Positions 7,151 to 44,690 of a stretch of 64,000 nt of DNA are shown here, one piece after another. The DNA is from Clostridia bacterium (lineage in GTDB: Bacteria; Bacillota; Clostridia; Oscillospirales; CAG-272). A model generated the notes under the pieces. That model searched no databases. It saw nothing but the letters and a program-made list of their open reading frames with translations, and was not told the DNA's origin. The stretch's first letter is position 1; the number at the start of each line of letters is the position of its first letter. Location: contig JAFTSU010000002.1 in assembly GCA_017467105.1 (NCBI GenBank), positions 40,588 through 104,587 of the forward strand, in the 5' to 3' direction. The position numbers and the translations under genes were made by a program.

Positions 7151-7165
7151 AATTATTTACATTTT
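7151..7165 (+). repeat. AATTATTTACATTTT 15-mer, exact copy
   Basis: Intergenic, downstream of the + strand PHP gene. The 20-mer ATAACAATTATTTACATTTT is identical to the one at 27331-27350. Confidence 0.8.
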
Positions 7166-7217
7166 CCTTGTTTTTAATACGATTCTACTATAATAACAAA
7201 TCTGAAAGGACGATATT

Positions 7218-8213
7218 ATGATACAGGATAAAAAGGTTGTATTTTCCGGCGTTCAGCCGTCGGGAAATCTGACTATAGGAAACTATCTCGGAGCGATCAA
7301 AAACTTTTCTCGCTTCTCCGACGAGTACAAAACCTTCTATTGCGTTGTTGACCTTCACGCCATAACGGTAAGACAGGTTCCCGCTGATCTGCGCCGCCGC
7401 ACCTACGAAACGCTGGCGCTCTATATGGCGTGCGGCTTGGATGAAAAGAAGAACACGCTCTTCGTTCAGTCTCACGTACCCGCGCACGCTGAGCTTGGCT
7501 GGATGCTTGACTGCTACACGATGTTCGGTGAGCTCTCCCGCATGACGCAGTTCAAGGATAAAAGTCAGAAGCATGCGGAAAACATCAACGCAGGTCTGTT
7601 CACTTATCCCGCTCTTATGGCGGCGGATATCCTTCTCTACCAGACGGATCTGGTTCCCGTGGGCATTGATCAGAAGCAACATCTGGAGCTGACCCGTGAC
7701 GTAGCAATGAGATTTAATCAGGCATACGGCGATACCTTCGCTATCCCCGAGGGATATATTCCTACGGATACAATGAAAATCATGTCTCTGACCGAGCCTA
7801 CCTCAAAAATGTCAAAGTCCGATGAAAATCAGAATGCTGTCGTTTATATACTTGACTCCAAGGACGATATAATCCGCAAATTTAAGAAGGCCGTTACCGA
7901 CTCTGAGGCATCCGTAAGATACGCTCCTGAAAAGCCGGGAGTATCCAATCTTATGACCATTTACCGCGCCTTCACCGGTAAGAGCCTTGAGGATATTGAG
8001 CGCGAGTTCGACGGTAAGGGATACGGAGAGTTCAAGCTCGCGGTCGGCGAGGCTTGCGCTGACGGTCTCGCACCCGTTCGCGATGAGTTCGCAAGGCTGA
8101 TGGCGGATAAGGCTCACCTTGAATCCGTTATGAAGGCAGGAGCTGACGAGGCGGCATACTACGCAAGACGCACCATGTCCAAGGTAAGACGCAAGATCGG
8201 ATTTGTAAATTAA
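7218..8213 (+). CDS. trpS: Tryptophan--tRNA ligase
   Basis: 331 aa. The N-terminus FSGVQPSGNLTIGNYLG and the KMSKS motif (SKMSKSD) are present. Confidence 0.93.
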   Translation: MIQDKKVVFSGVQPSGNLTIGNYLGAIKNFSRFSDEYKTFYCVVDLHAITVRQVPADLRRRTYETLALYMACGLDEKKNTLFVQSHVPAHAELGWMLDCYTMFGELSRMTQFKDKSQKHAENINAGLFTYPALMAADILLYQTDLVPVGIDQKQHLELTRDVAMRFNQAYGDTFAIPEGYIPTDTMKIMSLTEPTSKMSKSDENQNAVVYILDSKDDIIRKFKKAVTDSEASVRYAPEKPGVSNLMTIYRAFTGKSLEDIEREFDGKGYGEFKLAVGEACADGLAPVRDEFARLMADKAHLESVMKAGADEAAYYARRTMSKVRRKIGFVN

Positions 8214-8281
8214 CCGTCCCATTACTTTTACAATCATACTTATTAATATAATTACTTTTACTATTATAATCATATTTGATA

Positions 8282-8337
8282 AAACAAATCTTTACAGGTG
8301 TTTTAACCGGCATTATGTAAAGATTTGTTTTCGTTTT
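8282..8337 (+). terminator. Intrinsic terminator after trpS
   Basis: 15-bp stem AAACAAATCTTTACA / TGTAAAGATTTGTTT followed by a T-rich tail. Confidence 0.7.
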
Positions 8338-8537
8338 AAGCCATTTTTACTCTTTAAAGAAATAGTCATCCAAACGGTTTTTGTTATGCTTTGCTTTCCG
8401 TTTAGTTAAACATCCTCAAAAAAAAGCAAGCCGTTCTCCGCCCCACTTTGACCGTTAGGTAAACGTCATACATTCGCCCGATTCCAATATCAAGTAATAC
8501 AGGTCTTATTTTCCAAAAAATATTTTTATTAAACTTA

Positions 8538-8566
8538 TTGACTTTTTTGTATATATAATATATAAT
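8538..8566 (+). promoter_or_regulatory. Sigma-A type promoter of the citrate synthase operon
   Basis: TTGACT (8538-8543), 17-nt spacer, TATAAT (8561-8566). Confidence 0.55.
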
Positions 8567-8576
8567 AGAGCCATAA

Positions 8577-8596
8577 ATTGTATACAAGGATACAAT
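8577..8596 (+). promoter_or_regulatory. Candidate GntR-family operator (palindrome)
   Basis: TTGTATACAA (8578-8587) is a perfect 10-bp palindrome of the GT-N-AC type. It is nested in ATTGTAT-N6-ATACAAT. It lies just downstream of the -10, and a GntR/FCD regulator is encoded in the operon. Confidence 0.35.
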
Positions 8597-8625
8597 CTTA
8601 TTTCCATAAGAAAGGATCAGAAAAA

Positions 8626-10008
8626 ATGATTGAAAAAAACAAGCACACTAATCTACTTGAAAAGGCACAGTATAAATATTCACTTCAGGACGTTGAGGAG
8701 CCAAACCTCTACCGTGACATTTACCCCTACGACGAGATACCCAAGGTCACCTTCAACCACCGCAGAGTTCCCTTTGCTATGCCTGACGATATCTGGATCA
8801 CAGACACCACCTTCCGTGACGGTCAGCAGTCCAGAGCTCCCTACACCGCAGCGCAGATAGAGACGCTCTTCACAATGCTCCACAAGCTTGGCGGACCCAA
8901 GGGTCTGATCCGTCAGAGCGAATTCTTCGTTTATACAAAGAAGGATCGTGAGGCGGTAGAGCGTTGTATGTCACTCGGGTACGAATTCCCTGAGGTTACC
9001 ACCTGGATCAGAGCCAAGAAGGAGGACTTCGCCCTGGTGCGTGATATCGGTATCAAGGAAACGGGCATTCTCGTATCCTGCTCCGATTACCATATTTTCA
9101 AGAAGCTGGGTCTGACGAGATCGGAGGCGCTGGACCACTATCTCGGAGTTGTAAAGAACGCCTTTGAGGCAGGTATTCGCCCCAGATGTCACCTTGAGGA
9201 CATTACCAGAGCAGACTACTACGGCTTCGTGGTTCCATTCGTTAACGAGCTGACCGAGCTTTCACACGAGGCAGGTATTCCGGTCAAAATAAGAATGTGC
9301 GATACTATGGGATACGGCGTTTCCTACCCCGGCGCATCCCTTCCCCGCTCCGTTCCCGGTATAGTCTACGGTCTGCACCATTACGCAGAGGTGCCCTCCG
9401 AAATGCTTGAGTGGCACGGTCACAACGATTTCTATCACGGCGTCACGAACGCGGTGAACGCTTGGCTTTACGGCGCATCCGCCGTCAACTGCTCTCTGCT
9501 TGGTATCGGTGAGCGTACGGGCAACATTCCCCTCGAGGCTATGGTTATGGAGTACGGCTCTATACGCGGTACGCTTGACGGTATGGATACGACGATGATC
9601 ACCGAGATAGCCGAGTATTTCAAGCACGAGATCGGTTACGAGATACCCCCGATGACCCCCTTCGTCGGTTCAGCCTTTAACCTGACACGCGCAGGCGTTC
9701 ACGCTGACGGTCTGATGAAGGATACGGAAATATACAACATCTTCAACACCGAGAAGATACTCAACCGTCCCGCAGAGGTTGCGATCTCCAACACCTCCGG
9801 AACCGCAGGTATTGCGTATTGGATGAACAAGCATTACGAGCGCACCCTCGGCCACACCTTTACAAAGCAGGATCCTATCGTAGTGAAGATAAAGGAAGAG
9901 ATCGACAGGCTCTACGCAGACGGCAGAACGACCCTTATGGGTGACGAAGAGCTTGAGCAAATCATCAGCTTCTACTATCCTCGTCTTCACGAGGAGGTAT
10001 GCAAGTGA
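8626..10008 (+). CDS. HMGL-like (homocitrate / isopropylmalate synthase family) enzyme, probable Re-citrate synthase
   Basis: The TDTTFRDGQQ motif is present. It clusters with aconitase and isocitrate dehydrogenase. The start is moved to MIEKNK (ATG 8626, RBS GAAAGGA). The ORF track starts at 8578. Confidence 0.7.
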   Translation: MIEKNKHTNLLEKAQYKYSLQDVEEPNLYRDIYPYDEIPKVTFNHRRVPFAMPDDIWITDTTFRDGQQSRAPYTAAQIETLFTMLHKLGGPKGLIRQSEFFVYTKKDREAVERCMSLGYEFPEVTTWIRAKKEDFALVRDIGIKETGILVSCSDYHIFKKLGLTRSEALDHYLGVVKNAFEAGIRPRCHLEDITRADYYGFVVPFVNELTELSHEAGIPVKIRMCDTMGYGVSYPGASLPRSVPGIVYGLHHYAEVPSEMLEWHGHNDFYHGVTNAVNAWLYGASAVNCSLLGIGERTGNIPLEAMVMEYGSIRGTLDGMDTTMITEIAEYFKHEIGYEIPPMTPFVGSAFNLTRAGVHADGLMKDTEIYNIFNTEKILNRPAEVAISNTSGTAGIAYWMNKHYERTLGHTFTKQDPIVVKIKEEIDRLYADGRTTLMGDEELEQIISFYYPRLHEEVCK

Positions 10009-10667
10009 TAGTAGACAAGAATATAAAATCTCTCGGCGAGAGCGTCTTTCTTCGTTTGGAGGAGGAGATTCTCAGCGGCGCGCTAAAAAAAGGCGATCTG
10101 CTGACCGAGATCTCTCTCTCCAAGCGGCTGGGAGTCAGCCGAACCCCGCTAAGAGCCGCCATTCATACCTTGGCAGAGGAGGGTCTGGTGGAGATCACCC
10201 CAAACAAGGGGGCGGTGGTCGTCGGAGTTGGCGCTGACGACCTGGTTGATATTTACGAGATCAGAATGCGCCTTGAGGGAATTGCCGCTAGAGCGGCGGC
10301 GAAAAACATCTCGGAGCAGGCAAAAAGGGAGCTTCGGGAATCAGTAGAGCTATCCGAGTTTTATCTGACGAAGAGGGACTACGATCACCTGAAGGAGCTG
10401 GACTCCGAGTTTCACAACATTATCTACAAGTCCTCCGGCAGCCGTCACCTCTACAAGATCCTCTCCGAGCTTCACAGAAATATCCGCTCCTACAGAAGAC
10501 TCTCACTTGCAGTACCTAAGAGACTCGAGGGCTCAGTCAACGAGCACAGGGAAATATTTGAAGCTATAGAACGTGCAGACGCAGATAGCGCTGAGCGCTT
10601 AACCGTCGATCATATTAAGGCGGCTCTAAACAATCTTATGTCTACGCTTGACCCTCTAAAACGATAA
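10005..10667 (+). CDS. GntR-family transcriptional regulator with FCD-type C-terminal domain
   Basis: The winged-HTH segment LSKRLGVSRTPLRAAIHTLAEEGLV is present. GTG 10005 lies 7 nt after GAGGAGG. The in-frame ATG at 9999 is only 1 nt from that SD. The gene overlaps the end of the upstream gene. Confidence 0.75.
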   Translation: MIVDKNIKSLGESVFLRLEEEILSGALKKGDLLTEISLSKRLGVSRTPLRAAIHTLAEEGLVEITPNKGAVVVGVGADDLVDIYEIRMRLEGIAARAAAKNISEQAKRELRESVELSEFYLTKRDYDHLKELDSEFHNIIYKSSGSRHLYKILSELHRNIRSYRRLSLAVPKRLEGSVNEHREIFEAIERADADSAERLTVDHIKAALNNLMSTLDPLKR

Positions 10668-10835
10668 TTTTGTAATTAAAGCTTTACATTTTCACATATT
10701 TATTCTAATTGTATTAGTTCGAATCATTTCAATAATATTGATTTATATTCATAATTACAATCAAACTCCAGCGTTACGCTGATCGCTTGGCGGATACGCT
10801 GTGACAAACCTAAGAAAATTCACGAGGAAAACAAA

Positions 10836-12767
10836 ATGGGATACACTATTGCGCAAAAAATAATTAAGAACCACCTGGTTTGCGGTGAGATGAAGGTCGG
10901 TGAGGAAATAGGCATAAGGATCGATCAGACACTCACACAAGACGCAACCGGTACTATGGCATATCTTCAGCTCGAGGCTATGGAAATAGACAGAGTTAAA
11001 ACGGAGCTGTCAGTCGCTTATATTGACCATAACACACTTCAGTCAGGCTTCGAAAACGCAGACGATCACCGTTACATACAGACCGTTGCAAAGAAGCACG
11101 GCATCAGATTTTCCCGTCCCGGAAACGGAATTTGCCATCAGGTACACCTTGAAAGATTCGGTATTCCCGGCAAGACCCTCATCGGCTCGGACAGCCACAC
11201 ACCCACAGCCGGTGGTATCGGTATGCTTGGCATGGGCGCCGGCGGTCTTGACGTTGCGGTTGCCATGGGCGGCGGTACATACTATATCACAATGCCAAAG
11301 ATCATCAAGGTTGAGCTTACCGGCAAGCTCTCCGACTACGTCAGCGCGAAAGATATCATCCTTGAGGTGCTGAGAATACTCGGCGTTAAGGGTGGTGTAG
11401 GAGCAATTATAGAATATTCCGGCGAGGGTGTCAAAACCCTGTCCGTTCCCCAGAGAGCGACCATCACCAATATGGGCGCTGAGCTTGGAGCCACAAGCTC
11501 TATCTTCCCCTCTGACGAGGCAACTCACGCCTTTCTTAAGGCCCAGGGCAGAGAGTGCGACTTCTCTCCTCTCGCTCCCGATGCGGATGCGGTGTACGAC
11601 GAGAGCTATACAGTAGATCTCTCCCTTCTTAAGCCCCTGGCGGCTTGCCCTCACAGCCCCGACAACATCAAATCCGTATCCGAGCTTGCGGGCAAGAGGA
11701 TCGACCAGGTCTGCATTGGCTCCTGCACGAACTCCTCTCTCTCCGATATGCTGACGGTTGCGGCTATCCTTAAGGGCAAGACCGTTCATCCCGACGTCTC
11801 CCTTTCCATCTCCCCCGGCTCAAAGCAGGTATACACAATGATGGCAAAGTGCGGCGCTCTGGCAGATATTATTGCCGCGGGAGCGCGCGTGCTGGAATGC
11901 GCCTGCGGACCCTGCATCGGTATGGGCTTCTCTCCGAAGTCCGGCGGAGTAAGCCTTCGTACCTTCAACCGCAACTTCCTCGCTCGCTCCGGCACTGCGG
12001 ACGCAAGCGTATATCTTGTCTCTCCCGAGGTAGCGGCAGCATCTGCTATCACAGGAGTATTCACCGACCCGACCTCTCTCGGCAAGGCGCCGGTTATTGA
12101 TATGCCACAGGAGTTCACCATTAACGACAATCTGGTTGAGCTTCCCGCATCTATAGACGAGGCGGCAGAGGTAACCGTGGAGCGCGGTCCTAACATCAAG
12201 CCGATTCCCAAGGGCGTATCTCCCGCTGAGGACCTGTCCTGCGAGATAATTCTGAAGGTTTCGGACAATATTACCACAGACCACATCATGCCCGCCGGCG
12301 CTAAGATACTTCCATATCGCTCAAACGTACCTAAGCTATCCGAGTTCTGCTTCACCGTTTGTGACAAGGACTTCCCCGAAAGAGCAAAGGCAAAGGGCGG
12401 CGGAATCGTCCTTGGCGGTCAGAATTACGGCCAGGGATCATCCAGAGAGCACGCGGCACTCGTACCACTCTATCTCGGCGTCAAGGCAGTTATCGCGAAG
12501 AGCTTCGCAAGGATCCATATGGCAAACCTTATAAACTTCGGTATAGCTCCCATAACTTTGAAAAACGAGAGCGATTACGATAAGATCAGCGAGGGCGAGA
12601 TGATACGTATCGACGGCTACAGATCAGCCATCGAGGGAAGCGACGAGGCATATCTTACCATAGAGAAAACAGGTGAAAGAATACCTCTTGTTCTCTCATA
12701 TTCCGAAAGACAGAGAAAAATTTTACTGGCGGGCGGAACACTTAATTATACAAAGAATTGTAAGTAA
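10836..12767 (+). CDS. Aconitate hydratase (about 640-aa clostridial type)
   Basis: 643-aa ORF with aconitase-family motifs (IDQTLTQDATG, GSDSHT, IGSCTNS). Confidence 0.85.
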   Translation: MGYTIAQKIIKNHLVCGEMKVGEEIGIRIDQTLTQDATGTMAYLQLEAMEIDRVKTELSVAYIDHNTLQSGFENADDHRYIQTVAKKHGIRFSRPGNGICHQVHLERFGIPGKTLIGSDSHTPTAGGIGMLGMGAGGLDVAVAMGGGTYYITMPKIIKVELTGKLSDYVSAKDIILEVLRILGVKGGVGAIIEYSGEGVKTLSVPQRATITNMGAELGATSSIFPSDEATHAFLKAQGRECDFSPLAPDADAVYDESYTVDLSLLKPLAACPHSPDNIKSVSELAGKRIDQVCIGSCTNSSLSDMLTVAAILKGKTVHPDVSLSISPGSKQVYTMMAKCGALADIIAAGARVLECACGPCIGMGFSPKSGGVSLRTFNRNFLARSGTADASVYLVSPEVAAASAITGVFTDPTSLGKAPVIDMPQEFTINDNLVELPASIDEAAEVTVERGPNIKPIPKGVSPAEDLSCEIILKVSDNITTDHIMPAGAKILPYRSNVPKLSEFCFTVCDKDFPERAKAKGGGIVLGGQNYGQGSSREHAALVPLYLGVKAVIAKSFARIHMANLINFGIAPITLKNESDYDKISEGEMIRIDGYRSAIEGSDEAYLTIEKTGERIPLVLSYSERQRKILLAGGTLNYTKNCK

Positions 12768-12780
12768 TTATTTACATTTT
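12766..12780 (+). repeat. AATTATTTACATTTT 15-mer, exact copy
   Basis: It overlaps the aconitase stop codon (TAA 12765-12767). Confidence 0.8.
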
Positions 12781-12809
12781 ACACCTTTATAAACAAAAGA
12801 GGTGATAAT

Positions 12810-13802
12810 ATTACAAACATACCTAAGCAATACGCGTGTCTGCATTTACACTCCACGCATTCTGATGGTGTATACACGCCAAGGGAGCTTGCCGAGATCG
12901 CAAGGGACGAGGGCTACGGCGCAATCGCTGTAACCGATCACGATACCGTTACCGCAAACGAGCCTCTTCTTCGCGAGTGTGATAAACTCGGTCTTGAGTG
13001 CATATACGGCGTTGAATTCAGCACGGTATCAGAAAAAAATAATATAAGCTACCATATGACCGCCTTTCATTTCGACCCTGAGCAGTCCGATATGAGAGAA
13101 TATCTCAGGATCCTAAGCGAAAGGGAAACTCATCAAACCAGGGTTCTTTTCGACCGTGGCGTCGAGATAGGATATTTAAAAAATATCACCTGGGATGAGG
13201 TAGAAAAATACAACGAAGGGGTCAGCTGGTTCTGCAACGAGCAGGTCTTCAGAGCTCTTAAGGCAAAGGGCCTTGCAACAGATAAGGATTACCCTGAATT
13301 CTGCCAAACCTGTTACGGTCCTCATAGAAGCTCGGTCAAGCCGCTCCATGACTTCAAATCCACGGAAGAGGTTATTAGACTAGTGCATAACGCCGGAGGT
13401 ATTATACTGATGGCTCATCTCTTCTGGAAGTGCCGGGAGGAGACGTTGCGTGACTTCGACCATTTTGCAGAGCTTTCTATTGACGGAATAGAGGTCTGGC
13501 ACCCGGACCACAGCGCAAAATACAGAAGGGTTGCCCTAGAGCTTGCCTTGAAGCACGATCTATACGTCTCCGGAGGCGCAGATCATTCAGGTCTGCTTGG
13601 CGGTCAGTACGCAAGATACGTAGACCCGACAAAGAGTCACCATTTCTTCCCTCCCTGCACCCTCGGAACAACCAAGTATTTCTTTGAGGAAATACGTGAC
13701 CGGATAAAAAAGCCGGACAGAGACTCAGTAATCAGCGCTCTGCTGTCCGACGATAGCATCTGGCAGATAACGGGCGGACTGATCGACGAGGATAATTTAT
13801 GA
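12810..13802 (+). CDS. PHP-domain phosphoesterase paralogue with a probable non-canonical ATT start (or a start-less pseudogene)
   Basis: The frame is open from 12768 and encodes ...CLHLHSTHSDGVYTPRELAEIARDEGYGAIAVTDHD, colinear with the N-terminus of the 13963 paralogue. There is no in-frame ATG/GTG/TTG before 13056. ATT 12810 lies 5 nt after SD AGAGGTG. Confidence 0.6.
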   Translation: MTNIPKQYACLHLHSTHSDGVYTPRELAEIARDEGYGAIAVTDHDTVTANEPLLRECDKLGLECIYGVEFSTVSEKNNISYHMTAFHFDPEQSDMREYLRILSERETHQTRVLFDRGVEIGYLKNITWDEVEKYNEGVSWFCNEQVFRALKAKGLATDKDYPEFCQTCYGPHRSSVKPLHDFKSTEEVIRLVHNAGGIILMAHLFWKCREETLRDFDHFAELSIDGIEVWHPDHSAKYRRVALELALKHDLYVSGGADHSGLLGGQYARYVDPTKSHHFFPPCTLGTTKYFFEEIRDRIKKPDRDSVISALLSDDSIWQITGGLIDEDNL

Positions 13803-13962
13803 TCTTTCCGTCGGTTATAAAAAAGGCCGAAAGTGATCCTAAGCGCAGCCGCGCTCAAGATAATGCGGCAAGGTAGCGCAGGATTCCGGATTTATATAAA
13901 ACTGTCAAAAGCGAGCCATAACGGCTTTACCGATTACAACTATATATAAAAGGTAAAAAACT

Positions 13963-14949
13963 ATGATGATACAGGATCATTACGCCAATCTGCATATGCA
14001 TTCAACCCATTCCGACGGACGCTACACTCCAGAGGAGCTGGCGCAGCTAGCAAAGGAAATAGGATACGGCGCAATCGCGGTAACCGATCACGATACCACA
14101 ACGGCTAACGCTCCCGCGATCGAGGCCTGTAAAAAGATAGGCTTAGAGTGTATTTTCGGCGTTGAGTTCTGCAGCAAGTATTGGGAAACGGGACACGTTA
14201 TGCATCTCACCGCATTTCATTTTGACCCGGAGCATCCGTACCTGAAGGAGCATATCTACCGTATGAGCGAGCGCTATGGCGGACTCACCCGTGATCTGTT
14301 CCACAGAGGTGTGTGCGAAGGCTTCATTAAGGGGATAACCTGGGATGAGGTGGAGAGCTTCAACGAGGGTATTCGATGGTTTACAGCCGCCCACGTTTTC
14401 AAGGCGATGAAAAACAAGGGTGTTATAAACGACGAGGGTAAGGAAGCGCTCTACGCGAATTGCTTCTCCAGAGAGCTGAAGCTCGCAACCCCTAAGCGAT
14501 ACGGCTTTCCGCCGATAGAGGAATTTATTCCTGCGGTTCACGATGCGGGCGGTATATTGCTTGTAGCTCACCCGCACGAAAGACTCGAGGACGTTAAGAT
14601 GCTTACGAAGCTTGATATAGACGGACTCGAGGTATGGCACAGCGAGCTGCCGGTTTGGGAGCGCAGAGAAGCTCTCAGAGTTGCTTTGGAGTACGATCTC
14701 TACGTTTCGGGAGGGGACGACCACTCAGGACTCCTTGGCGGAAGCTACAGCCCGGGCGAGCACCCGGTAGGACACAGACACTACTATCCGCCACGCTCTC
14801 TCGGCACGACGAAATATTTCTTTGAGGAAATAAGAGACGCAAGGAAGAAGCCCGACAGATCTGAATACATAAAGAGTCTTATCGATGATAACTCTATCTG
14901 GCAGAAGGCGGGCGGAATATCGGATAATATAGAGAAACCAAATCTTTAA
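13963..14949 (+). CDS. PHP-domain phosphoesterase paralogue
   Basis: 328 aa with NLHMHSTHSDG...AVTDHD. It aligns along its whole length with the 12810 gene. Confidence 0.75.
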   Translation: MMIQDHYANLHMHSTHSDGRYTPEELAQLAKEIGYGAIAVTDHDTTTANAPAIEACKKIGLECIFGVEFCSKYWETGHVMHLTAFHFDPEHPYLKEHIYRMSERYGGLTRDLFHRGVCEGFIKGITWDEVESFNEGIRWFTAAHVFKAMKNKGVINDEGKEALYANCFSRELKLATPKRYGFPPIEEFIPAVHDAGGILLVAHPHERLEDVKMLTKLDIDGLEVWHSELPVWERREALRVALEYDLYVSGGDDHSGLLGGSYSPGEHPVGHRHYYPPRSLGTTKYFFEEIRDARKKPDRSEYIKSLIDDNSIWQKAGGISDNIEKPNL

Positions 14950-15128
14950 GCGTTTTTTAACGTTTATTATAATTTTTATTTAAAGCAGTATTATGGGCGA
15001 GGTCCTTCCTCAAGACATCGCACGGCGGACAGGCGTCTTCGTTTTATCGCTTTAAAGATATAATATTTTTAACTTAAAATAATCGGCAGTTCAGTTAGTT
15101 TTTAAATTAAAACCCACAATTTGACAAT

Positions 15129-15143
15129 AATTAATTACATTTT
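15129..15143 (+). repeat. 15-mer variant AATTAATTACATTTT (14/15)
   Basis: Intergenic, downstream of the + strand PHP gene and 29 nt upstream of the GH20 start. Confidence 0.6.
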
Positions 15144-15171
15144 TACCGTTTTTAAACAGAAAGGGATTAAA

Positions 15172-17019
15172 ATGAAACTTAACTTTAATATCTCGTCTGA
15201 TCTGACCGTAGGTGTCACTAGACTCAGCGACGTGCTTGGATACACTCAGGTAAGCGACGGAGTAACCGTAAAGGACGTCAAGGGCGACAAAATAGGCGTC
15301 AGCTTTGACGGACAGGAAGCCGTGATCTACTACAAGAGCAAGCCTCAGTTCTACAGAGGTCTGTCTATCCTTATTGAAAAGGGTAGCGAGCCCTTCGAGT
15401 GCTTTGAGAGCGATCAATTTGATACTCTCGGCGTAATGCTTGACACCTCGCGCTGCGCGGCTCTTAATATGAGATCTCTCTATAAGTTCACAGATTATCT
15501 GGCGGTAATGGGATATAATATGATCTGGCTTTACGTTGAGGATTCCATAGTGTTAAGCGGCAGACCGTACTTTGGATATATGCGTCCGAAATACACCGAG
15601 GAGGAGCTTTCCGCCCTTGACGATTACGCATACGAATACGGTATTGAGGTCGTTCCCTGCCTTGAATGCTACGGTCATATGGCTCAGTATCTCAAGTGGC
15701 CCGAGGCTTCATCTATTAAGGACACGGACAGCGTGCTTTTAGCTAGAGAGCCGAAGACCTTCCAGTTCCTTGACGAGCTTATTTCTACCGTAGCAAGAAA
15801 CTTCCGCTCCCGCAGGATCCACGTAGGAATGGATGAGGCGTGGGATATGGGCAGAGGCAAATTTCTTGATAAGCACGGCTACGTTCCCCCCGCGGAGATA
15901 TTCAACGAATATATGAACGAGCTGACTAAGATAACCGACAAGTACGGTCTTAGACCGATGATGTGGAGCGATATGTACTTCCGTACCTGCTCTGTCGGAA
16001 ACCGTTATTACGAAAAGGATATAGTTATTCCCGACTATGTAAAGCAAAATATTCCGAAGGATATGGATCTCGTTTTCTGGCATTACGGAGAGATGCCCGG
16101 CTGCGACGGATATATGCTGGAAAAGCATATGGCGCTCGACAGACCCGTTATCTTTGCGGGAGGACTCTGGAGCTGGATCGGTCACTTTCCCGAGCACAAT
16201 TATGCTCTTGAAACCACCAGATTTTCCATCAATGCCTGCAGAAGCGCAAACGTCAAGGAGGCTGTAATGACCATATGGCTCAACGACAACGCGGAGTGCG
16301 ATGTGTTCGCGAATCTGTACGGACTTTCCTTTATGGCGGAGCTTGTATACGACGAGAATCCCTCTGCCAAAAAGCTCAAGGAAAGATTTGAAGCATCCAC
16401 CGGCGCTTCTGCTGACGCCTTCTACAAAATGAGCTATTATCACAACAAATTTGATGGTGTAAAGTACGATCACTACAGTCAGAGGTTCCTCGGAAAGCCG
16501 CTCTTCTGGCAGGATATACTCGAGGGTCTTTATGACTACGATCTGTTGAATTGCCCTATGAGCGAGCACTATATTGAGGCGGCGGAGAGTATTTCCTCGG
16601 CTATAAACGAGGACGACCGCTGGAATTATCTCTACGTGTTTGCCAAGGCTGTATTCGAATATATGAGCCTCAAGTGCTACGTTGCCGAAAATCTCACTCC
16701 CGCTTATAAGTCCGGCGACAAGGAAATGCTCTACGTTCTCGCAAAGGATTATCTGCCTGCCGTAAAGGAGAGCTGCGAAGAGGTTCACTCTCTCCACAAA
16801 AAAATGTGGTTCGAGAACAACAAGCCACTGGGATGGGGCAATATGGATATTCGCTACGGCGGCGTAGCGGCAAGATGCGACACCGCACAGGACCGCATTT
16901 TCGCATATCTGTCCGGCGAGATCGACAAAATCGAGGAGCTTGAGGAGCCCCGTCTTTACAAGTCTCATGGTGGATTCCTTCAGTACAACGCGATGTCCTC
17001 TCCCAATTTAAAAATCTGA
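15172..17019 (+). CDS. Glycoside hydrolase family 20-like beta-N-acetylhexosaminidase
   Basis: GVMLDTSR and HVGMDEAWD motifs (GH20 H-x-G-x-D-E type) are present. The start is moved to MKLNFN (ATG 15172, RBS AAAGGGA). Confidence 0.7.
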   Translation: MKLNFNISSDLTVGVTRLSDVLGYTQVSDGVTVKDVKGDKIGVSFDGQEAVIYYKSKPQFYRGLSILIEKGSEPFECFESDQFDTLGVMLDTSRCAALNMRSLYKFTDYLAVMGYNMIWLYVEDSIVLSGRPYFGYMRPKYTEEELSALDDYAYEYGIEVVPCLECYGHMAQYLKWPEASSIKDTDSVLLAREPKTFQFLDELISTVARNFRSRRIHVGMDEAWDMGRGKFLDKHGYVPPAEIFNEYMNELTKITDKYGLRPMMWSDMYFRTCSVGNRYYEKDIVIPDYVKQNIPKDMDLVFWHYGEMPGCDGYMLEKHMALDRPVIFAGGLWSWIGHFPEHNYALETTRFSINACRSANVKEAVMTIWLNDNAECDVFANLYGLSFMAELVYDENPSAKKLKERFEASTGASADAFYKMSYYHNKFDGVKYDHYSQRFLGKPLFWQDILEGLYDYDLLNCPMSEHYIEAAESISSAINEDDRWNYLYVFAKAVFEYMSLKCYVAENLTPAYKSGDKEMLYVLAKDYLPAVKESCEEVHSLHKKMWFENNKPLGWGNMDIRYGGVAARCDTAQDRIFAYLSGEIDKIEELEEPRLYKSHGGFLQYNAMSSPNLKI

Positions 17020-17089
17020 TGTTATTCAAATTCGTTAGATAACAAAACAAGTACAAGCGGAACAAGCTCAAAAACCAATACATGCAAAT

Positions 17090-17104
17090 AATTATTTACA
17101 AAAA
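17090..17104 (+). repeat. 15-mer partial copy (AATTATTTACA then AAAA)
   Basis: The first 11 nt match. It lies 14 nt upstream of the icd ATG region. Confidence 0.4.
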
Positions 17105-17117
17105 GAGGAAATAATCA

Positions 17118-18287
17118 ATGGAAAACTACAAAGATAATCTCGATCTCGCCTGCGAGAAATTCAGAGAAATTCTCACAAAACAGCTGACTCGCGTAGAGGA
17201 TATGAAGGCTCAGGGCGATTTCACCGACTACGAAAAGCTTGAAACGATCAAGATTGGCGTATGCGGCGGAGACGGCATAGGACCGATCATCACAAAGGAG
17301 GCGGCAAGAGTACTTGAGTTTATGCTCTCCGACCTTGTTGAGAGCGGAAAGGTATCCTTCGTTACTATCGACGGATTGACCCTGGAAAACAGAATTGCCT
17401 GCGGTAAGGCGATACCCGACGACGTTATGGCAGCCCTCAAGTCCTGCGACATTATTCTGAAGGGTCCCACCACCACGCCTCAGAAGGGCTCCGGAATGCC
17501 CAACATTGAGTCGGCAAACGTAGCTATGAGAAAGGCTCTTGATCTTTTCGCTAACATCAGACCCGTCAAGGTTCCCGAGGAGGGCATCAACTGGTGCATC
17601 TTCCGTGAGAATACAGAGGGCGGATACGCTGTCGGCTCATCAGGATTTAACGTTACCGAGGATTTGGCGGTTGACTTCACCATCACCACAAAGCAGGGCT
17701 CTGACAGAATCGCAAGGCTCGCTTACGATTATGCCAGAAAGAACGGCAGAACCAGAGTTTCCCTCGTTACCAAGGCAAACGTTATCAAGACTACAGACGG
17801 CAACTTCCTTGAGGATTGTCACAAGGTTGCCGCAGAATATCCCGAGATTACAACAGACGAGTGGTATGCGGATATTATGACCGCAAAGCTCGTTGACAAG
17901 AAGCGCCGCCGCGACTTCCAGGTGCTGCTGCTTCCAAACCTGTACGGTGATATCATCTCGGACGAGGCTGCAGAGTTCCAGGGCGGCGTAGGAACCGCCG
18001 GCTGCGCAAACATCGGTAAAAAATACGCAATGTTTGAGGCGATCCACGGCTCAGCTCCCAGAATGGTAAACGAGGGCAGAGCGATCTACGCAGACCCCTG
18101 CTCTATGCTTCGCGCGGCAGTTATGCTCCTCTCTCATATAGGTTATCAGGACAGAGCGGACAAGCTTGAGCGCGCGCTGGATATCTGTACCTTTGAGGAG
18201 AAGAAGCTCACCATCACCGGAAGAGCTGACGGCGCGACCTGCGAGGCGTTCGGCAACTACGTAATGGAGACTCTTAAGAGCCTTTGA
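17118..18287 (+). CDS. icd: Isocitrate/isopropylmalate dehydrogenase family enzyme, probable isocitrate dehydrogenase
   Basis: GDGIGPIIT and NLYGDIISDEAA motifs are present. It is in context with citrate synthase and aconitase. Confidence 0.75.
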   Translation: MENYKDNLDLACEKFREILTKQLTRVEDMKAQGDFTDYEKLETIKIGVCGGDGIGPIITKEAARVLEFMLSDLVESGKVSFVTIDGLTLENRIACGKAIPDDVMAALKSCDIILKGPTTTPQKGSGMPNIESANVAMRKALDLFANIRPVKVPEEGINWCIFRENTEGGYAVGSSGFNVTEDLAVDFTITTKQGSDRIARLAYDYARKNGRTRVSLVTKANVIKTTDGNFLEDCHKVAAEYPEITTDEWYADIMTAKLVDKKRRRDFQVLLLPNLYGDIISDEAAEFQGGVGTAGCANIGKKYAMFEAIHGSAPRMVNEGRAIYADPCSMLRAAVMLLSHIGYQDRADKLERALDICTFEEKKLTITGRADGATCEAFGNYVMETLKSL

Positions 18288-18446
18288 TCAGGATAAGTAA
18301 CGCACACCCATTCCAACAAGCAGATCACTCCGTCAATAACCAATTTAAGCCTATCAAATATACTTGACGGGATATAACGTCGAAGGTTTATCCAAAACGT
18401 TACAAGCCTTGAAAATAAATAGCTTATGTTAATTTTTACCTTATAC

Positions 18447-18475
18447 TTGACTATTTTCGCCGTATATGTTAAAAT
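18447..18475 (+). promoter_or_regulatory. Sigma-A promoter with extended -10
   Basis: TTGACT, 17-nt spacer, TGT-TAAAAT. Confidence 0.55.
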
Positions 18476-18547
18476 ATTAGCGTAAAGAAGCTGCAACCGT
18501 CTTGCCGAGCCCGGCAAGAGACAGCAGAAAAGAACAGGAGATCATAT

Positions 18548-18751
18548 ATGAAAAAATTACTCATACTCCTTCTCGTTATTTCTATCCTTGCAATTTCCCT
18601 TGTCGGCTGCGTAGATAATGGCGGCGGAGGCGAGCAGGGCGGCTCAGGTGAGCAAGGAAGCCAGGGTGGCGGATCCGAGGGCGGAGAAGGCTCCGAAGGA
18701 GAGGGCGAAGAAATACCCGAGCCCGACGAGGGTGGCTGGACAAAGCCATAA
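18548..18751 (+). CDS. Small lipoprotein with a Gly/Glu/Ser-rich tail
   Basis: Signal peptide with lipobox LVGC. RBS AGGAG. A terminator follows. Confidence 0.6.
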   Translation: MKKLLILLLVISILAISLVGCVDNGGGGEQGGSGEQGSQGGGSEGGEGSEGEGEEIPEPDEGGWTKP

Positions 18752-18775
18752 ATCAATCACACATTAAAACGATAA

Positions 18776-18810
18776 AACAGGTATCTACAAGACGTAGATA
18801 CCTGTTTTTT
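18776..18810 (+). terminator. Intrinsic terminator
   Basis: CAGGTATCTA...TAGATACCTG stem followed by TTTTTT. Confidence 0.7.
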
Positions 18811-18815
18811 GCTAC

Positions 18816-18830
18816 TATTATTTACATTTT
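18816..18830 (+). repeat. 15-mer TATTATTTACATTTT (14/15)
   Basis: It begins 6 nt after the terminator T tract, in a convergent intergenic region. Confidence 0.7.
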
Positions 18831-18945
18831 TGATGTTTTTAGCAGTTAATTGGATACGGATCATAGACCTCGTACCGTTATAACTCGTCCTATGTCCGTC
18901 ACAACCGGTTGAACGATTAGAGGAATCCTTATCAGAATTTTTCTA

Positions 18946-20163
18946 TCAGCGAATTCCGTAATTCTCTATGATGTAGTCCATATCCTTGTCACCCCTGCCG
19001 GACAGACATACAAGGATAGATCCGTGGGACATCTCCTTCGCAAGCTTGATGGCGTAAGCAACCGCGTGAGAAGACTCTATAGCGGGAATAATACCCTCAA
19101 GGCGAGACAGCGTAAAGAAGGCGTCTATCGTCTCTTCGTCACCGATAGCGTCATACTTCACTCTGCCAAGATCGTGAAGGAAGGCGTGCTCGGGCCCGGA
19201 TGACGGATAGTCAAGACCGCTTGCCACAGAGTACACGGGAGCGGGATCGCCATTCTCATCCTTCAGCATAATGCTGTTAAAGCCGTGCATAATACCCTCA
19301 GATCCATACTGAAGGCTTGCTGCGTGATCTCCAAGAGTCGCGCCGCGACCGAGAGGCTCGATACCGTAAATGTCGACGGGATCGTTTAAGAATCCGGAGA
19401 ACATTCCCATAGCGTTGGAGCCGCCGCCCACGCAGGCAACGACTGCGTCGGGAAGCTCACCCGTCATAGAAAGGAACTGCTCTCTCGCTTCTATTCCGAC
19501 AACGCTCTGGAAATCGCGGACCATCATAGGAAACGGATGAGGACCAACCACGCTACCTATACAGTAGATAGCATCCTTATACTCCTTAGAATAAGCGAGG
19601 AACGCTGCATCAACAGCCTCCTTAAGAGTCTGCAGACCCTCGGTAACCTCTATAACGTTGGCACCGAGTATCTTCATTCTGGCAACGTTTGGCGCCTGCT
19701 TTTTAATATCCACAGCACCCATATAGATATCGCACTCAAGTCCGAAGTAAGCGGCAGCAGTAGCCAGCGCAACGCCGTGCTGTCCGGCTCCAGTCTCCGC
19801 GATCACCTTCTTTTTACCCATGTATTTAGCAAGGAGAGCCTCGCCCATGCAATGATTGAGCTTGTGAGCACCGGTGTGGTTCAGATCCTCTCTCTTAACG
19901 TAGATCTGTACGTTGCCGATAGTACCGGAGAGACGCTCAAGATATGAGATAGGAGTAGGCCTGCCCTGAAACTCGCGACGTATCTTACGCAGCTCGCTTA
20001 TAAATTTTGATGATTTACAGATAGTGAAGTACGCCTCTGTGATCTCCTTCATAGCGTCGTAAAGCTCTTTTGAGATATACGCGCCTCCGTATTTTCCGTA
20101 ATAGCCCTCGCTATCGGGATAATTTTTAAGATAAGTATCAAAATCCACTCCGCCGAAATTCAT
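18946..20163 (-). CDS. trpB: Tryptophan synthase beta chain (stand-alone TrpB)
   Basis: HTGAHKLNH (PLP lysine), [10 protein letters not shown] and GGGSNAMG motifs are present. The start is moved to MNFGG (ATG 20163, RBS AAGGAG 8 nt upstream). Confidence 0.85.
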
Positions 20164-30701: not shown

Positions 30702-30719
30702 TTTGATTATTCCTTTGTA

Positions 30720-39443: not shown

Positions 39444-39449
39444 ATCCAC

Positions 39450-39497
39450 AAAAAGCTCACCCTTCGGTAAAAACCGTCGGGTGAGCTTTTTATTTTT
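39450..39497 (-). terminator. Intrinsic terminator of the GH2 gene
   Basis: AAAAGCTCACCC...GGGTGAGCTTTT stem. Confidence 0.7.
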
Positions 39498-41790: not shown

Positions 41791-41932
41791 TTTTTCTCCT
41801 TTTTCCTTTTGTCATAGCCGGGCAACCGAAACTCAAGCCGCCAAGCCGTATTGATCGCCGTAATGAATGATATACAATTGCTATTATAATTACAGTAAAC
41901 AGATATATTCATTTGATTAACAAAAATCAGGC

Positions 41933-41947
41933 GAAATGTAAATAATT
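41933..41947 (-). repeat. 15-mer AATTATTTACATTTC (14/15) on the minus strand
   Basis: It lies just downstream (on the minus strand) of the transporter terminator hairpin and upstream of the GH2 gene. Confidence 0.7.
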
Positions 41948-41950
41948 GTT

Positions 41951-41993
41951 TAAAATTGCGGCGCCCGACGCTTGTTTTTGCCGGACGCCGCAA
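41951..41993 (-). terminator. Imperfect GC-rich hairpin after the transporter gene
   Basis: TTGCGGCG...CGCCGCAA followed by TTTTA on the minus strand. Confidence 0.45.
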
Positions 41994-42018: not shown

Positions 42019-43626
42019 TTAAACAGACTCTGCAACGTCAGAAGTTTCCTTACGGGAAGCGAGATCCTCAGTCATTTTTACAAGAGTCTTTTGGTCGATG
42101 TTATAAATAACGGAAACACCTACGAACTGACATACGGCGCTCAGAGCATAAAGAGCAGCAACGAGCCAGCAAAGATTAGCCGCAGTCTCAGGAGACTGAC
42201 CGATAGTACCGAGTGAGGAAACGTAACCGATGAGGGGAGTTCCCATTATTGCGATAACCGCTGCAGGACCTACGCCCTGAGCCAGCTTTCTGAAGAATGA
42301 GTGAAGAGCGTATACTACGCTTTCCTCTCTCTTGCCGGTTTTCCATTCCTGATAATCGATAGCATCACCCATCATAGCCCAGGATACGCAGTTATAGAAG
42401 CCCATACCAAGACCGAAGAATATAAGACCGATCATATAGATGATGAGCTGGATATCCTTGGGGCAAAGCGGGAAGATGCAAAGAATTGCGGCACCGATAA
42501 GTCCGGCAATGGAGCCTATGGACGCAACCTCTTTTTTACCGTACTTTTTAACAAGCTTGGTAGCGAAGGGCATAAAGATGAACATAGGAAGGAATCCTAC
42601 CATCATTACAACACCGGAAAGAGACGCCTGACCGAAATGGGTCGCAAACATAATAGTGTTAGCAGTAGATGCAGATTGCATGCCAAGGAACATACCCATA
42701 GCAGCAACAGTACATCCGACAGCAGGTCTGTTCTTCACGAACGCGCCAAGGGACTTAATAAGATTAATCTTTTCACCGGTTTCCTGGTTAAGCTCTGCAT
42801 ACTCATTGCCGCGGATAGTGATATTCTTGATCATAAAGATGAAGAATACGAATGCGATAATACCCATAATAAGAGCTGCAAGGAATACTCTGTCTCCGAG
42901 AAGAACCTCTATCTGACCGCCGGTCAGGGGGCTGAGAACCTTGTCACCTGCCACGTATGCTTCACCGTTCGTGGGATTCTTAAGGAAGTTTTCAGGAGCG
43001 AATGCGCCCTCTGCGCCCTCGGGAATCTCGATCTTATCAAGGAACCAGGTTGGATTAGCGGGATCAAAAGTAACCTTCTGCCAAATAAGCATAGGAAGAA
43101 TGATACCGGGAACCATACCGCCAATCGCACCGCCGATAGATCTGAATACGGAGAGCTGTGCTCTCTCACCGGCATCGTCGGTAACGATATTGAGCATCGT
43201 GCCGTAAGGAACGTTCGCCATTGTATAGGCAGCATCCCAAATGATGTATCCAATAACGAAGAGTATAGCCTTAAGCCACATATCTGCTTTCGGGAAAGGA
43301 AGGAATACAGCCGCGCCACCTACGAGAAGGCCTATAGCGCCGATAAGTATATACGTTTTATACTTTCCCATTTTGTATTTTCTCTTATCCGCATCAATAA
43401 GAGAACCGATAAGCGGGTCGTTAACAGCGTCCCACGCCTGAACAAGCAGAAGAAGAATCGAGAAAAGTCCCGTCTCCATCATCATGTAAACAAGCCAGAA
43501 CGTCTGTACGGTAGACTTAAGACCGAAGCTTAAGTTACAGCCCGCGTCGCCTGCAGCATACGCAAGTTTATCTCTTATGCCAAACTTACGCTTGCCGTTA
43601 GCATCAAGTTGAACTTGTTTTGCCAT
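42019..43626 (-). CDS. GPH-family sugar/glucuronide transporter
   Basis: 535 aa, 12 TM segments with a long central loop. N-terminus DKLAYAAGDAG. Confidence 0.75.
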   Translation of the reverse strand: MAKQVQLDANGKRKFGIRDKLAYAAGDAGCNLSFGLKSTVQTFWLVYMMMETGLFSILLLLVQAWDAVNDPLIGSLIDADKRKYKMGKYKTYILIGAIGLLVGGAAVFLPFPKADMWLKAILFVIGYIIWDAAYTMANVPYGTMLNIVTDDAGERAQLSVFRSIGGAIGGMVPGIILPMLIWQKVTFDPANPTWFLDKIEIPEGAEGAFAPENFLKNPTNGEAYVAGDKVLSPLTGGQIEVLLGDRVFLAALIMGIIAFVFFIFMIKNITIRGNEYAELNQETGEKINLIKSLGAFVKNRPAVGCTVAAMGMFLGMQSASTANTIMFATHFGQASLSGVVMMVGFLPMFIFMPFATKLVKKYGKKEVASIGSIAGLIGAAILCIFPLCPKDIQLIIYMIGLIFFGLGMGFYNCVSWAMMGDAIDYQEWKTGKREESVVYALHSFFRKLAQGVGPAAVIAIMGTPLIGYVSSLGTIGQSPETAANLCWLVAALYALSAVCQFVGVSVIYNIDQKTLVKMTEDLASRKETSDVAESV

Positions 43627-43815
43627 TTTTGAGTTTCCTCCAAATTATTATTTTTTATATACAACCTTTTTAATTATAGCAAATAAAAAACAATAATAGA
43701 AGTCCCAAAGTGCCACTTTTGTGACACCCTATGACAAAATTTATTCATAAAATATAGTCAAAATGCACAATTTTTTAAACAATTTACTCAATTTTTGCCA
43801 TTTTTTGCATTTCTA

Positions 43816-43845
43816 TTGACTCGCGTTGCACTGATTTGGTATAAT
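43816..43845 (+). promoter_or_regulatory. Sigma-A promoter with extended -10
   Basis: TTGACT, 18-nt spacer, TGG-TATAAT. Confidence 0.5.
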
Positions 43846-43912
43846 TATAAAGGATAAACAGCTCAGAAATATATTACCTAATCAACGCGGTAGCGGCAGG
43901 ATAGGAGGCAGA

Positions 43913-44503
43913 ATGTATAAGCTTTGTAAAACCGAGCAATCCACCCTAAGACAACGGCAGATCGAGAGAGAGCTTCTCTCGTTAATGAATCAGAAGAGCT
44001 TTGAGGAAATAACAGTAACCGAGCTCTCTGACAGGCTCTCTATGCCGAGAAAGGCGTTTTACCGGTACTTTGACAGCAAGGAGGACGCGCTCTACGCTCT
44101 TATTGATCACACCATGGCAGAGTACACGGATATGACCATGGACAAAAGCGGTGAGACAAACCGTTCTCTCCTTAACGAGCTTGACGAGTATTTTAAATTC
44201 TGGGTAGAGAAAAAGGATCTGCTTTACGCTCTTGACAAATCGGGAATAATCGGCACACTGATAGAGCGGACCGTAAACTTTCCTCTGGGTGACAGAATAG
44301 CAGTGGCGAAGTTTCTGCCCGACGAGGATATGGAAACCAGAACCAGAATATTCAAATTTGCCTTTGCAGGACTGACCTACGTTATGATAGAGTGGTACAG
44401 AGGTGGTTTTTCCACGCCAACGAGAGATATGGCAAGGCTGGCTGTCAGAACCTTCTGTCAACCGCTGTTCCCCGTTCTGAAGGATTTCAATACCTGTAAA
44501 TAA
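43913..44503 (+). CDS. TetR/AcrR-family transcriptional regulator
   Basis: 196 aa with an N-terminal HTH (ITVTELSDRLSMPRKAFYRYF). It is divergent from the transporter/GH2 operon. Confidence 0.8.
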   Translation: MYKLCKTEQSTLRQRQIERELLSLMNQKSFEEITVTELSDRLSMPRKAFYRYFDSKEDALYALIDHTMAEYTDMTMDKSGETNRSLLNELDEYFKFWVEKKDLLYALDKSGIIGTLIERTVNFPLGDRIAVAKFLPDEDMETRTRIFKFAFAGLTYVMIEWYRGGFSTPTRDMARLAVRTFCQPLFPVLKDFNTCK

Positions 44504-44505
44504 AT

Positions 44506-44550
44506 AACGAGAGGCTGCCCGTTCGGAGCGGTCTCTCGTTTTATTTTTTC
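44506..44550 (+). terminator. Intrinsic terminator
   Basis: AACGAGAG...CTCTCGTT stem plus a T tract. Confidence 0.6.
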
Positions 44551-44675
44551 TTACTGTTAGATCAATCTTTTAATCAAATCGCCACGGCATAAGCGTAAGC
44601 ATTCCAACGATTATTTCTCTGTTTGATCATCTTAATCTTTTCCGCAACAAGCTTCAAATCAACGCAAAAACCTAT

Positions 44676-44690
44676 GTTTTGTAAATAATT
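44676..44690 (-). repeat. 15-mer partial copy (AATTATTTACA then AAAC) on the minus strand
   Basis: 11/15 match. It lies about 25 nt downstream of the methyltransferase stop codon. Confidence 0.4.

Follow-up and report, generated by a model that had tools for sequence, protein, structure and literature searches.

The repetitive extragenic palindromes (REP) and bacterial interspersed mosaic elements (BIME) of enterobacteria are short dispersed sequences that follow genes, occupy convergent and tandem intergenic gaps and are rare in divergent promoter gaps; they are lineage-specific and are bound by proteins, gyrase and IHF among them. Sites such as the RBM of RefZ in Bacillus, the ram sites of RacA, the NBS of Noc and the matS of MatP are few and nearly palindromic, keep their positions across relatives and adjoin genes of unrelated function. 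The DNA uptake sequences of Neisseria (DUS) and the uptake signal sequences of Pasteurellaceae (USS) combine a conserved core with a phased A+T-rich flank and a free spacer, are frequent at terminators, are common to related lineages and number hundreds to thousands of copies per genome. Traits of all three recur in an element of about 38 bp, built around the 15-mer AATTATTTACATTTT, which we describe from a 64,000-nucleotide stretch of a Clostridia bacterium (assembly GCA_017467105.1, contig JAFTSU010000002.1, positions 40,588 to 104,587 of the forward strand); the whole of this stretch is called the window below.

Two regulatory systems have sequence in common with the element as well. The operators of GlnR and TnrA (TGTNA-N7-TNACA) and the cre sites (TGTAA-NCGN-TTACA) carry the same TGTNA and TNACA arms, and GlnR controls the citrate synthase, aconitase and icd genes in streptococci. 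The hexamer TTTACA is likewise the −35 element of the promoters read by TcdR-family (group 5) sigma factors of clostridia (PMC4031146). The element described here is a recurrent unit under position-specific constraint, is retained at orthologous places in related species and is placed with a bias among intergenic gaps; it has neither promoter geometry nor RNA structure. We infer from this combination that it may be a docking site on double-stranded DNA for a putative dimeric protein at the ends of transcription units.

Copies, anatomy and placement

The window holds seven copies of AATTATTTACATTTT at no more than one mismatch, and still seven at no more than two. Three are exact (7151, 12766 and 27336, all on the + strand) and four match 14 of the 15 positions (15129 and 18816 on the + strand, 39429 and 41933 on the − strand). 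All had been listed in an earlier note made from the sequence alone, and each was found again; shuffles of the window lead one to expect 0.39 copies, and seven were reached in none of 100 shuffles. Since the motif is very A+T-rich and its copies are intergenic, the count was repeated on the 11.1 kb of intergenic DNA alone (63% A+T), where a first-order Markov model expects 0.03 copies. Five of the strong copies are wholly intergenic, and two more overlap stop codons. The partial copies that the note placed at 17090 and 44676 are genuine relatives, both reading AATTATTTACAAAA, and the 20-mer it saw at both 7146 and 27331 is indeed identical (ATAACAATTATTTACATTTT). The downstream GTTTTTA reported at three sites lies exactly 4 nt 3' of the 15-mer (7170, 18835 and 27355) and occurs at a fourth, overlooked site as well (15148); variants of it stand at 41933 (GATTTTTG) and 44676 (GGTTTTTG). 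The copies, the terminators beside them and some weaker relatives are the following.

7139–7177, + strand: full copy between the PHP-domain gene and trpS; 15-mer at 7151–7165, GTTTTTA box at 7170–7176
10667–10700, + strand: related dyad TGTAATTAAAGCTTTACATTTT, of equal spacing and with another centre, between the GntR and aconitase genes
12754–12792, + strand: full copy with a good dyad, TGTAAGTAATTATTTACA; aconitase stop codon TAA inside; left edge of the PHP/GH20 insert
15117–15155, + strand: copy, AATTAATTACATTTT followed by GTTTTTA; ends 28 nt before the GH20 start codon
17078–17116, strand ambiguous: copy whose TTTT is replaced by AAAA (AATTATTTACAAAAA); icd start codon 13 nt downstream
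18774–18808, + strand: two-way intrinsic terminator serving a small lipoprotein gene and trpB; its T-run is the left arm of the 18816 copy
18804–18842, + strand: full copy, TATTATTTACATTTT followed by GTTTTTA, in a convergent gap
25410–25435, + strand: degenerate copy TTTTTGACTACAAATATTTACAATTA between the EamA and GH123 genes; weak orthologous match in the sister species
27278–27319, + strand: intrinsic terminator 3' of the GH123 gene
27324–27362, + strand: full copy, convergent gap; MatE stop codon overlapped by the 15-mer, GTTTTTA box within the last MatE codons
39417–39455, − strand: copy, AATTGTTTACATTTT, directly 3' of the GH2 terminator, in the convergent gap with the ABC/DUF1854 operon
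39448–39493 (± about 2 nt), − strand: intrinsic terminator serving GH2 and DUF1854 in both directions, about −30 kcal/mol
41921–41959, − strand: copy, AATTATTTACATTTC, 3' of the MFS gene terminator and 143 nt before the GH2 start
41956–41993, − strand: intrinsic terminator 5' of the 41933 copy; stem with compensatory changes relative to the sister species
44664–44702, − strand: copy with AAAA in place of TTTT (AATTATTTACAAAAC, then GGTTTTTG), in the convergent gap with the TetR gene
49099–49133, − strand: degenerate copy ATGACAAGTATGATTTACAAATA directly 3' of a strong terminator, in a convergent gap

The full unit of about 38 bp reads TTTTG-n-AAAY, then AATTATTTACA, then TTTT (or AAAA)-N4-GTTTTTA. 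Pairwise local alignments of 255-nt stretches round the copies end about 12 nt before and about 27 nt after the start of the 15-mer, and a longer element or larger repeat was rejected because similarity between copies stops at these points. The left arm repeats the right one in inverted, degenerate form, giving TGTAA-N8-TTACA, and the arm spacing is N8 in all dyadic copies; in more distant relatives the same spacing is the commonest for these arms. When 17 sites are aligned over 39 columns, columns are invariant or nearly so, and the N4 and positions −5 and −4 vary freely. That the N4 and these two left-arm positions differ in every copy indicates that the constraint is position-specific and does not stem from recent copying. 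The GTTTTT block keeps a fixed distance, exactly 8 nt 3' of TTTACA, in seven matches, against zero to four at other spacings. The arms pair in 67% of cells in register and in 20–50% when the partner is slid; shuffling gives 67.1% for the in-register value, with a single double change among 119 cells. Symmetry of this sort, without covariation, fits a symmetric recognition consensus and not a hairpin. A structured RNA or terminator made by the motif itself was accordingly rejected: minimum free energies run from 0 to −7 kcal/mol, the fold differs from copy to copy and pairing equals that of shuffled controls. Rfam matched none of the copies, and its matches in the window are two T-boxes and two tRNAs only.

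The distribution of the copies among intergenic gaps is uneven. The window has 26 tandem gaps (7075 nt), nine divergent ones (2721 nt) and eight convergent ones (1345 nt), of equal A+T content, and the nine copies lie five in tandem, four in convergent and none in divergent gaps. Convergent gaps thus hold four of the nine copies but only 12% of the intergenic length, and divergent gaps hold none with 24%; the probability that at least four of nine would fall in convergent DNA by chance is about 0.016. Four of the eight convergent gaps carry a strong copy, and a fifth has the degenerate copy at 49109 after its terminator. At the convergent sites the element is bounded on one side by a two-way terminator and on the other by the stop codon of the opposite-strand gene, which it overlaps at 27336. 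Strong hairpins (−22 to −32 kcal/mol) end 4–16 nt before the copies at 18816, 27336, 39429 and 41933; a strong terminator directly precedes one degenerate copy as well. At these sites the left-arm TTTT is supplied by the T-run of the terminator. The tie to gene ends and terminators proposed in the earlier note is therefore well founded, as is its placing of the 12766 copy on a stop codon, that of aconitase. The genes next to the copies share no function. The 44676 copy lies 28 nt 3' of the stop of an RlmL-like gene, and the gene upstream of the 18816 copy is the small lipoprotein gene at 18549–18752 (+).

Searching with a 25-mer pattern yielded six full-length copies in other lineages, which score 22–27 bits on the 39-position model, level with the window copies. 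Three of them (L133, L154 and L163) occupy convergent gaps, the one at L163 with the same succession of terminator, motif and stop codon as at 27336; a look-up of the SurE protein at L163 gave no result. The other three (L121, L136 and L164) are anti-oriented between tandem genes, their reverse complement ending 31–38 nt before the start codons of thrS, a rubredoxin gene and a kinase gene. Window and other-lineage copies together number seven convergent, eight tandem and none divergent. These data bear on the claim that the motif is always co-oriented with its upstream gene. The chance that nine random sites would all lie 3' of a co-oriented gene is about 6e-4, as calculated from the lengths of the gap classes. 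Co-orientation is, however, trivial at the four convergent sites, which leaves four tandem copies of clear strand (all four co-oriented; 17090, which scores about equally on both strands, is ambiguous), and the anti-oriented copies of the other lineages contradict it. The robust rule is one of gene ends and convergent gaps, never divergent ones, and the claim of constant co-orientation does not stand. Run on one genome per species, the 25-mer pattern gave 17 matches, mostly by chance in A+T-rich genomes; in metagenomes it gave 24, mostly in two conserved coding sequences of A+T-rich organisms. A phage source was rejected, the pattern having two chance matches in viral contigs, where the bare 15-mer also had chance matches among the matches listed.

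The host is an uncultured gut bacterium of the Clostridia/Eubacteriales, probably from a ruminant. Its DNA has about 48% G+C and uses ordinary TTGACA-17-TATAAT promoters and hairpin terminators; a perfect TTGACA-17-TATAAT lies inside the aconitase gene on its antisense strand (11406–11434, −). The lipoprotein encoded at 18549–18752 is rich in Gly and Glu and has 67 residues, a signal peptide ending in LVGC and its own promoter (TTGACT-17-TAAAAT, 18447–18475); lists of long open reading frames omit the gene and give a spurious antisense frame of 95 residues in its stead. A mini-palindrome, TTTTGTTACAAAAAA, at 7093–7108, 45 nt 5' of the 7151 copy, has the outer arms of the motif and lacks the central 12 bp.

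Retention in relatives and turnover of neighbouring genes

The window was compared with a sister species (GCA_045657485.1) on JAZOTE010000086 (loci L128, L138 and L150; genes 70–87% identical, one block 94%) and with a second relative (L143). Eight of the nine sites are kept at the same places in these two sister species, which answers the proposal of the earlier note to look for the motif positions in related genomes; only the 7151 copy is missing, the spacer there being 22 nt in the sister and longer by about 115 nt in the window. Anchored on the motif, identity rises from 0.46 (−60 to −20) to 0.74 (−10 to 0) and 0.87 in the 11-mer core and falls to 0.40 (+15 to +25) and 0.33 beyond. At 18816, 39429 and 41933 the terminator, with compensatory changes in its stem, and the motif form a conserved island, and homology ends right after TTTACA; the DNA on both sides of the hairpin and motif at 41933 differs from that of the sister species. 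The 27336 copy is identical in the sister species, the 39429 copy is kept there, and the 15129 copy is kept in two sister species, without its GTTTTTA box. Sister-species copies drift from the consensus, and the whole sister genome contains one exact 25-mer. More distant relatives, whose aconitase is 86–88% identical, have no copy in about 100 kb, orthologous gaps included.

In those more distant relatives the citrate synthase, GntR, aconitase and icd genes are contiguous, and an older dyad, TTTTGCAAAGAAAGGTTTACAAAAA, surrounds the icd ribosome-binding site. The present clade has a PHP/GH20 segment between aconitase and icd; copies lie at both of its edges, and one within it. The copy nearest icd, at 17090, is a descendant of the older dyad. 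The insert-free aconitase–icd spacer of 32–45 nt at L139 (11933–11964), L142 (11930–11974) and L145 (11933–11964) keeps the dyad TTTTGCAAA-GAAAGG-TTTACAAAA, whose centre is the icd ribosome-binding site. At L144 a further segment of about 8 kb (11933–20339) lies between aconitase and the PHP/GH20 pair, carrying two genes of 340 residues, an AraC gene, a GNAT_C gene and one gene of 903 residues; the junction after aconitase looks like an insertion hot spot.

The GH2 gene is flanked by two copies. Upstream of it the window has a transporter of the MFS family (42019–43626, 535 residues), and the same place in the sister species (L150, 17782–20456) holds an unrelated sugar-binding-protein gene and a different MFS gene; the two have in common only the last few codons, the terminator and the motif. 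Elsewhere, the EamA-GH123-MatE-DeoR-SDR-UxuA block at 23837–31856 is 94% identical to L150 2–8113, and the neighbouring DNA 80–87%, which suggests recent exchange between the window and sister lineages; EamA, GH123, MatE and DeoR are all absent from a more distant relative (L151). No transposase or recombinase gene was found in the window. Metagenome contigs aligned to 6000–20000 showed no empty-site joints at the motif, but this alignment is too noisy to use. Among RNA runs, none was found to contain this DNA.

Tandem repeats accompany some copies in the relatives. Between the lipoprotein terminator with its motif and trpB, L138 (about 17280–17540) and L143 (9090–9925) have from two to at least seven tandem repeats of about 105 nt (...TTTTTAGATAAAAATCCCGCTCTCGACCCGAAGCTGTAGTTACCTACTGCGAGCGGG...), of which the window has none. 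In the sister species (L138, 13555–13640) tandem units of about 23 nt (GGATTAACCGATATTATCACYGC) likewise separate the PHP gene from the motif that precedes GH20, and the window is without them.

A candidate docking site and its rivals

What could keep such a sequence in place at the ends of unrelated genes? We hypothesize that the element is a double-stranded DNA docking site for a putative dimeric protein at transcription-unit ends, and would give this reading a probability of roughly one in three. The element itself is the degenerate dyad TTTTG-n-AAAY-AA / TT-ATTTACA (TGTAA-N8-TTACA) with a one-sided extension TTTT-N4-GTTTTTA. A sequence-specific and probably dimeric protein would read it as duplex DNA, making an additional contact or a bend on the T-rich side. 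The protein would sit at the downstream edges of transcription units, beside intrinsic terminators and in convergent gaps, and would act there on DNA, forming a boundary or roadblock to read-through or else an anchor in chromosome organisation; alternatively, it might provide topological relief between converging genes. It would play no role in transcription start or RNA folding. This reading is favoured by constraint with free spacers, by symmetry without covariation and by orthologous retention with a sharp conservation peak, and further by the absence of a shared gene function, the avoidance of promoter gaps and the fusion of the left arm with terminator T-runs. Of the possibilities raised in the earlier note, a protein-binding signal is the one that fits best, if still putatively.

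A narrower form of the docking hypothesis, which we regard as doubtful, would make the element a dedicated boundary signal of transcription units, where a protein on the A+T-rich dyad blocks read-through polymerase or relieves the torsional clash of converging genes. Roadblock termination is known from eukaryotic and mitochondrial systems; the boundary dyad, which would begin in the terminator's own T-run, might be its bacterial counterpart.

Several observations weigh against the docking hypothesis. No candidate binding protein was found, and the local TetR, GntR and DeoR regulators are implicated through location only. The GTTTTTA box is not conserved in orthologues: present at 15129 and 18816 in the window, it is absent from both relatives, so that part of the element either turns over quickly or is lineage-specific. 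Three copies adjoin start codons, and gene expression may have co-opted some of them. There is clustering of the strong copies, with seven in a stretch of 38 kb (from 7 to 45 kb) and none in the remaining 26 kb of the window or in the 20 kb upstream of it, which could equally reflect local history.

Known binding sites were compared with the element. The GlnR/TnrA operator (TGTNA-N7-TNACA) was rejected, all dyadic copies being N8, as was the CodY box, which matches at nine of 15 positions. Neither the ARG box, the Fur/PerR 7-1-7 site and the Rex site (whose centre is 2 bp shorter) nor the sites of PadR (ATGT-N8-ACAT), NrdR and OhrR, the DnaA boxes and the direct repeats of PhoP/WalR fit both its arms and its spacing. 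The local TetR gene was rejected as a RefZ- or SlmA-like protein, its best structural relatives being DhaS-type regulators. A small peptide encoded downstream of the motif was also discarded, the start codons lying in differing frames, and a literature search for the motif strings returned nothing relevant.

An alternative source of the copies, which we hold possible though rather unlikely, is a short dispersed repeat, selfish or neutral and resembling REP sequences or the ends of miniature inverted-repeat transposable elements, that spread by insertion in the clade ancestor and survives where it is least harmful. Its restriction to the clade, with no copies in the relatives of 86–88% aconitase identity, would follow, as would the 7151 copy's presence or absence together with some 115 extra nucleotides, the identical 20-mer at 7146–7165 and 27331–27350 and the emptiness of divergent gaps, which purifying selection on insertions would also produce. 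Yet similarity is confined to about 12 nt before and 27 nt after the 15-mer start, with no terminal repeats or target duplications; the N4 and other free positions differ in every copy, which is unlike recent copies; cores are conserved above their flanks in orthologues; the window has no transposase or recombinase; and copy number in relatives is very low. The small-repeat relic proposed in the earlier note fits poorly with the position-specific conservation, the free N4 spacer and the orthologous retention. The pattern of gene turnover invites a different explanation, namely a recombination or crossover site for swaps of gene cassettes, with an att-like core of two arms round the 6-bp centre TAATTA, whose 9-6-9 layout resembles that of tyrosine recombinase core sites. 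Copies do stand at both edges of and inside the PHP/GH20 insert that splits the ancestral aconitase–icd pair, another 8-kb insert occupies that junction in one relative, window and sister stop being homologous directly after TTTACA at four sites, and the gene upstream of the 41933 hairpin and motif has been replaced by unrelated genes in the sister. We nevertheless find this improbable: no integrase lies nearby, three species have the same sites stably in place, the 94% block (23837–31856) has its copy in the middle and not at its ends, several copies separate genes that are neighbours in motif-free relatives too, and differences in identity from gene to gene can be ordinary differences in rate. 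Integron attC sites are imperfect hairpins with paired RYYYAAC/GTTRRRY cores at the 3' ends of co-oriented cassettes, beside intI and attI; an attC or cassette array was rejected here, as the neighbouring hairpins are G+C-rich terminators of the ordinary kind, with T-runs, no integrase occurs in the window, the genes lack the common orientation of an array and three species have the sites in stable form. An uptake-type signal serving natural transformation, also suggested in the earlier note, could draw on the bipartite conserved core with its free spacer, the proximity to terminators and stop codons and the recurrence of the same 25-mer in a few other Clostridia metagenome-assembled genomes; it is very hard to credit with one exact 25-mer per relative genome, sister copies that drift from the consensus and an absence of strong copies both from the 20 kb upstream of the window and from its final 19 kb. 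The best match in those 20 kb scores 13.5 bits and is a dyad built into a terminator stem. In the same species, 15 kb upstream of the window (L178, 16610–16656), the upper stem of a convergent-gap terminator is a motif-like dyad, AAAACCCCGAAAAAGCAAACAAATATTTGCATTTTCGGGGTTTT.

Transcription offers two further explanations. In one, which we think implausible, the element would be an operator or promoter, read by the GntR of the citrate synthase–aconitase–icd cluster or, through TTTACA, by a TcdR-type sigma factor. The dyad with TGTAA/TTACA arms, the related dyad in the GntR–aconitase gap and the older one round the icd ribosome-binding site of distant relatives speak for it, as do copies lying 13–53 nt before the trpS, GH20 and icd start codons, the three anti-oriented copies of other lineages just before start codons, and the occurrence of GTTAAT 15 nt (41933) and 18 nt (18816) after TTTACA. 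About half of the sites are convergent, however, and none divergent; the four copies that face converging gene ends have nothing to drive, which counts against a promoter; the 27336 element continues straight into the last codons of a gene; the next start codon may be as near as 13 nt or as far off as 290 nt; and the neighbouring genes share no function. A sigma-70 promoter was rejected as well, a −10 TAnnnT at 16–18 nt occurring only at 7151 (TTTACA-16-TACGAT) and weakly at 39429; at 15–19 nt a −10 is missing from both strands in seven of the nine sites, and AATAAT on the reverse strand is accompanied by no −35. A TcdR-family promoter fails too, since GTTAAT follows the ever-present TTTACA in two of nine copies only. 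The earlier view that this is no simple promoter is thereby upheld. In the other explanation the element would be a 3'-end signal for the transcript or RNA polymerase, a back-up terminator or a pause for read-through past the main hairpin. TTNTTT is the NusG-dependent pause word of Bacillus subtilis, and TTATTT and GTTTTT resemble it; every window copy has its T-rich strand as the sense strand of the gene upstream, and 4–16 nt separate four copies from the terminators before them. We judge this to be quite unlikely, as other lineages have three anti-oriented copies, no hairpin precedes five of the window copies, and a T-rich pause needs neither a strictly conserved ACA core nor a two-sided dyad; the terminator-associated signal of the earlier note, taken as an RNA signal, suffers likewise from the lack of a consistent fold and of covariation.

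If the docking hypothesis is correct, lineage-specific DNA signals would mark where transcription units end in uncultured gut Clostridia, and we know of no such layer of genome punctuation described for Firmicutes. The element would then provide a concrete bait sequence for finding its protein, and docking may also explain why local gain and loss of genes often breaks at the same short sequence. Were it a decaying short repeat instead, it would make a modest addition to the intergenic repeats of bacteria.

Comparison with described systems

Uptake sequences of the DUS and USS type occur about once per kilobase genome-wide, unlike this element, which has a single exact 25-mer in the whole sister genome and long empty stretches; membership in this class was rejected on these counts and for want of strong copies in the 20 kb upstream and the last 19 kb of the window. 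TcdR promoters have a −10 of GTTATA or GTTAAT at normal promoter spacing, whereas the conserved second block of the element, GTTTTTA, is only 8 nt from TTTACA. The arms are those of GlnR/TnrA and cre sites, but the spacing there is N7, or N4 with a central CG, against N8 at every site here, and placement at gene ends is wrong for such operators.

The REP sequences, which the element resembles in placement, are G+C-rich, form true hairpins, number in the hundreds and are associated with RAYT transposases. The element, by contrast, is an A+T-rich dyad without pairing covariation and of seemingly low copy number, and no RAYT-like gene was seen in the window. Sites of the RBM, ram and NBS type are not tied to terminators or convergent gaps and have no likeness to the element in sequence, and the local TetR protein is DhaS-like rather than RefZ- or SlmA-like. 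In the behaviour of its positions, the element nevertheless follows the pattern of these sites: eight of nine are kept in the sister species, conservation peaks on the core, and the neighbouring genes have no function in common.

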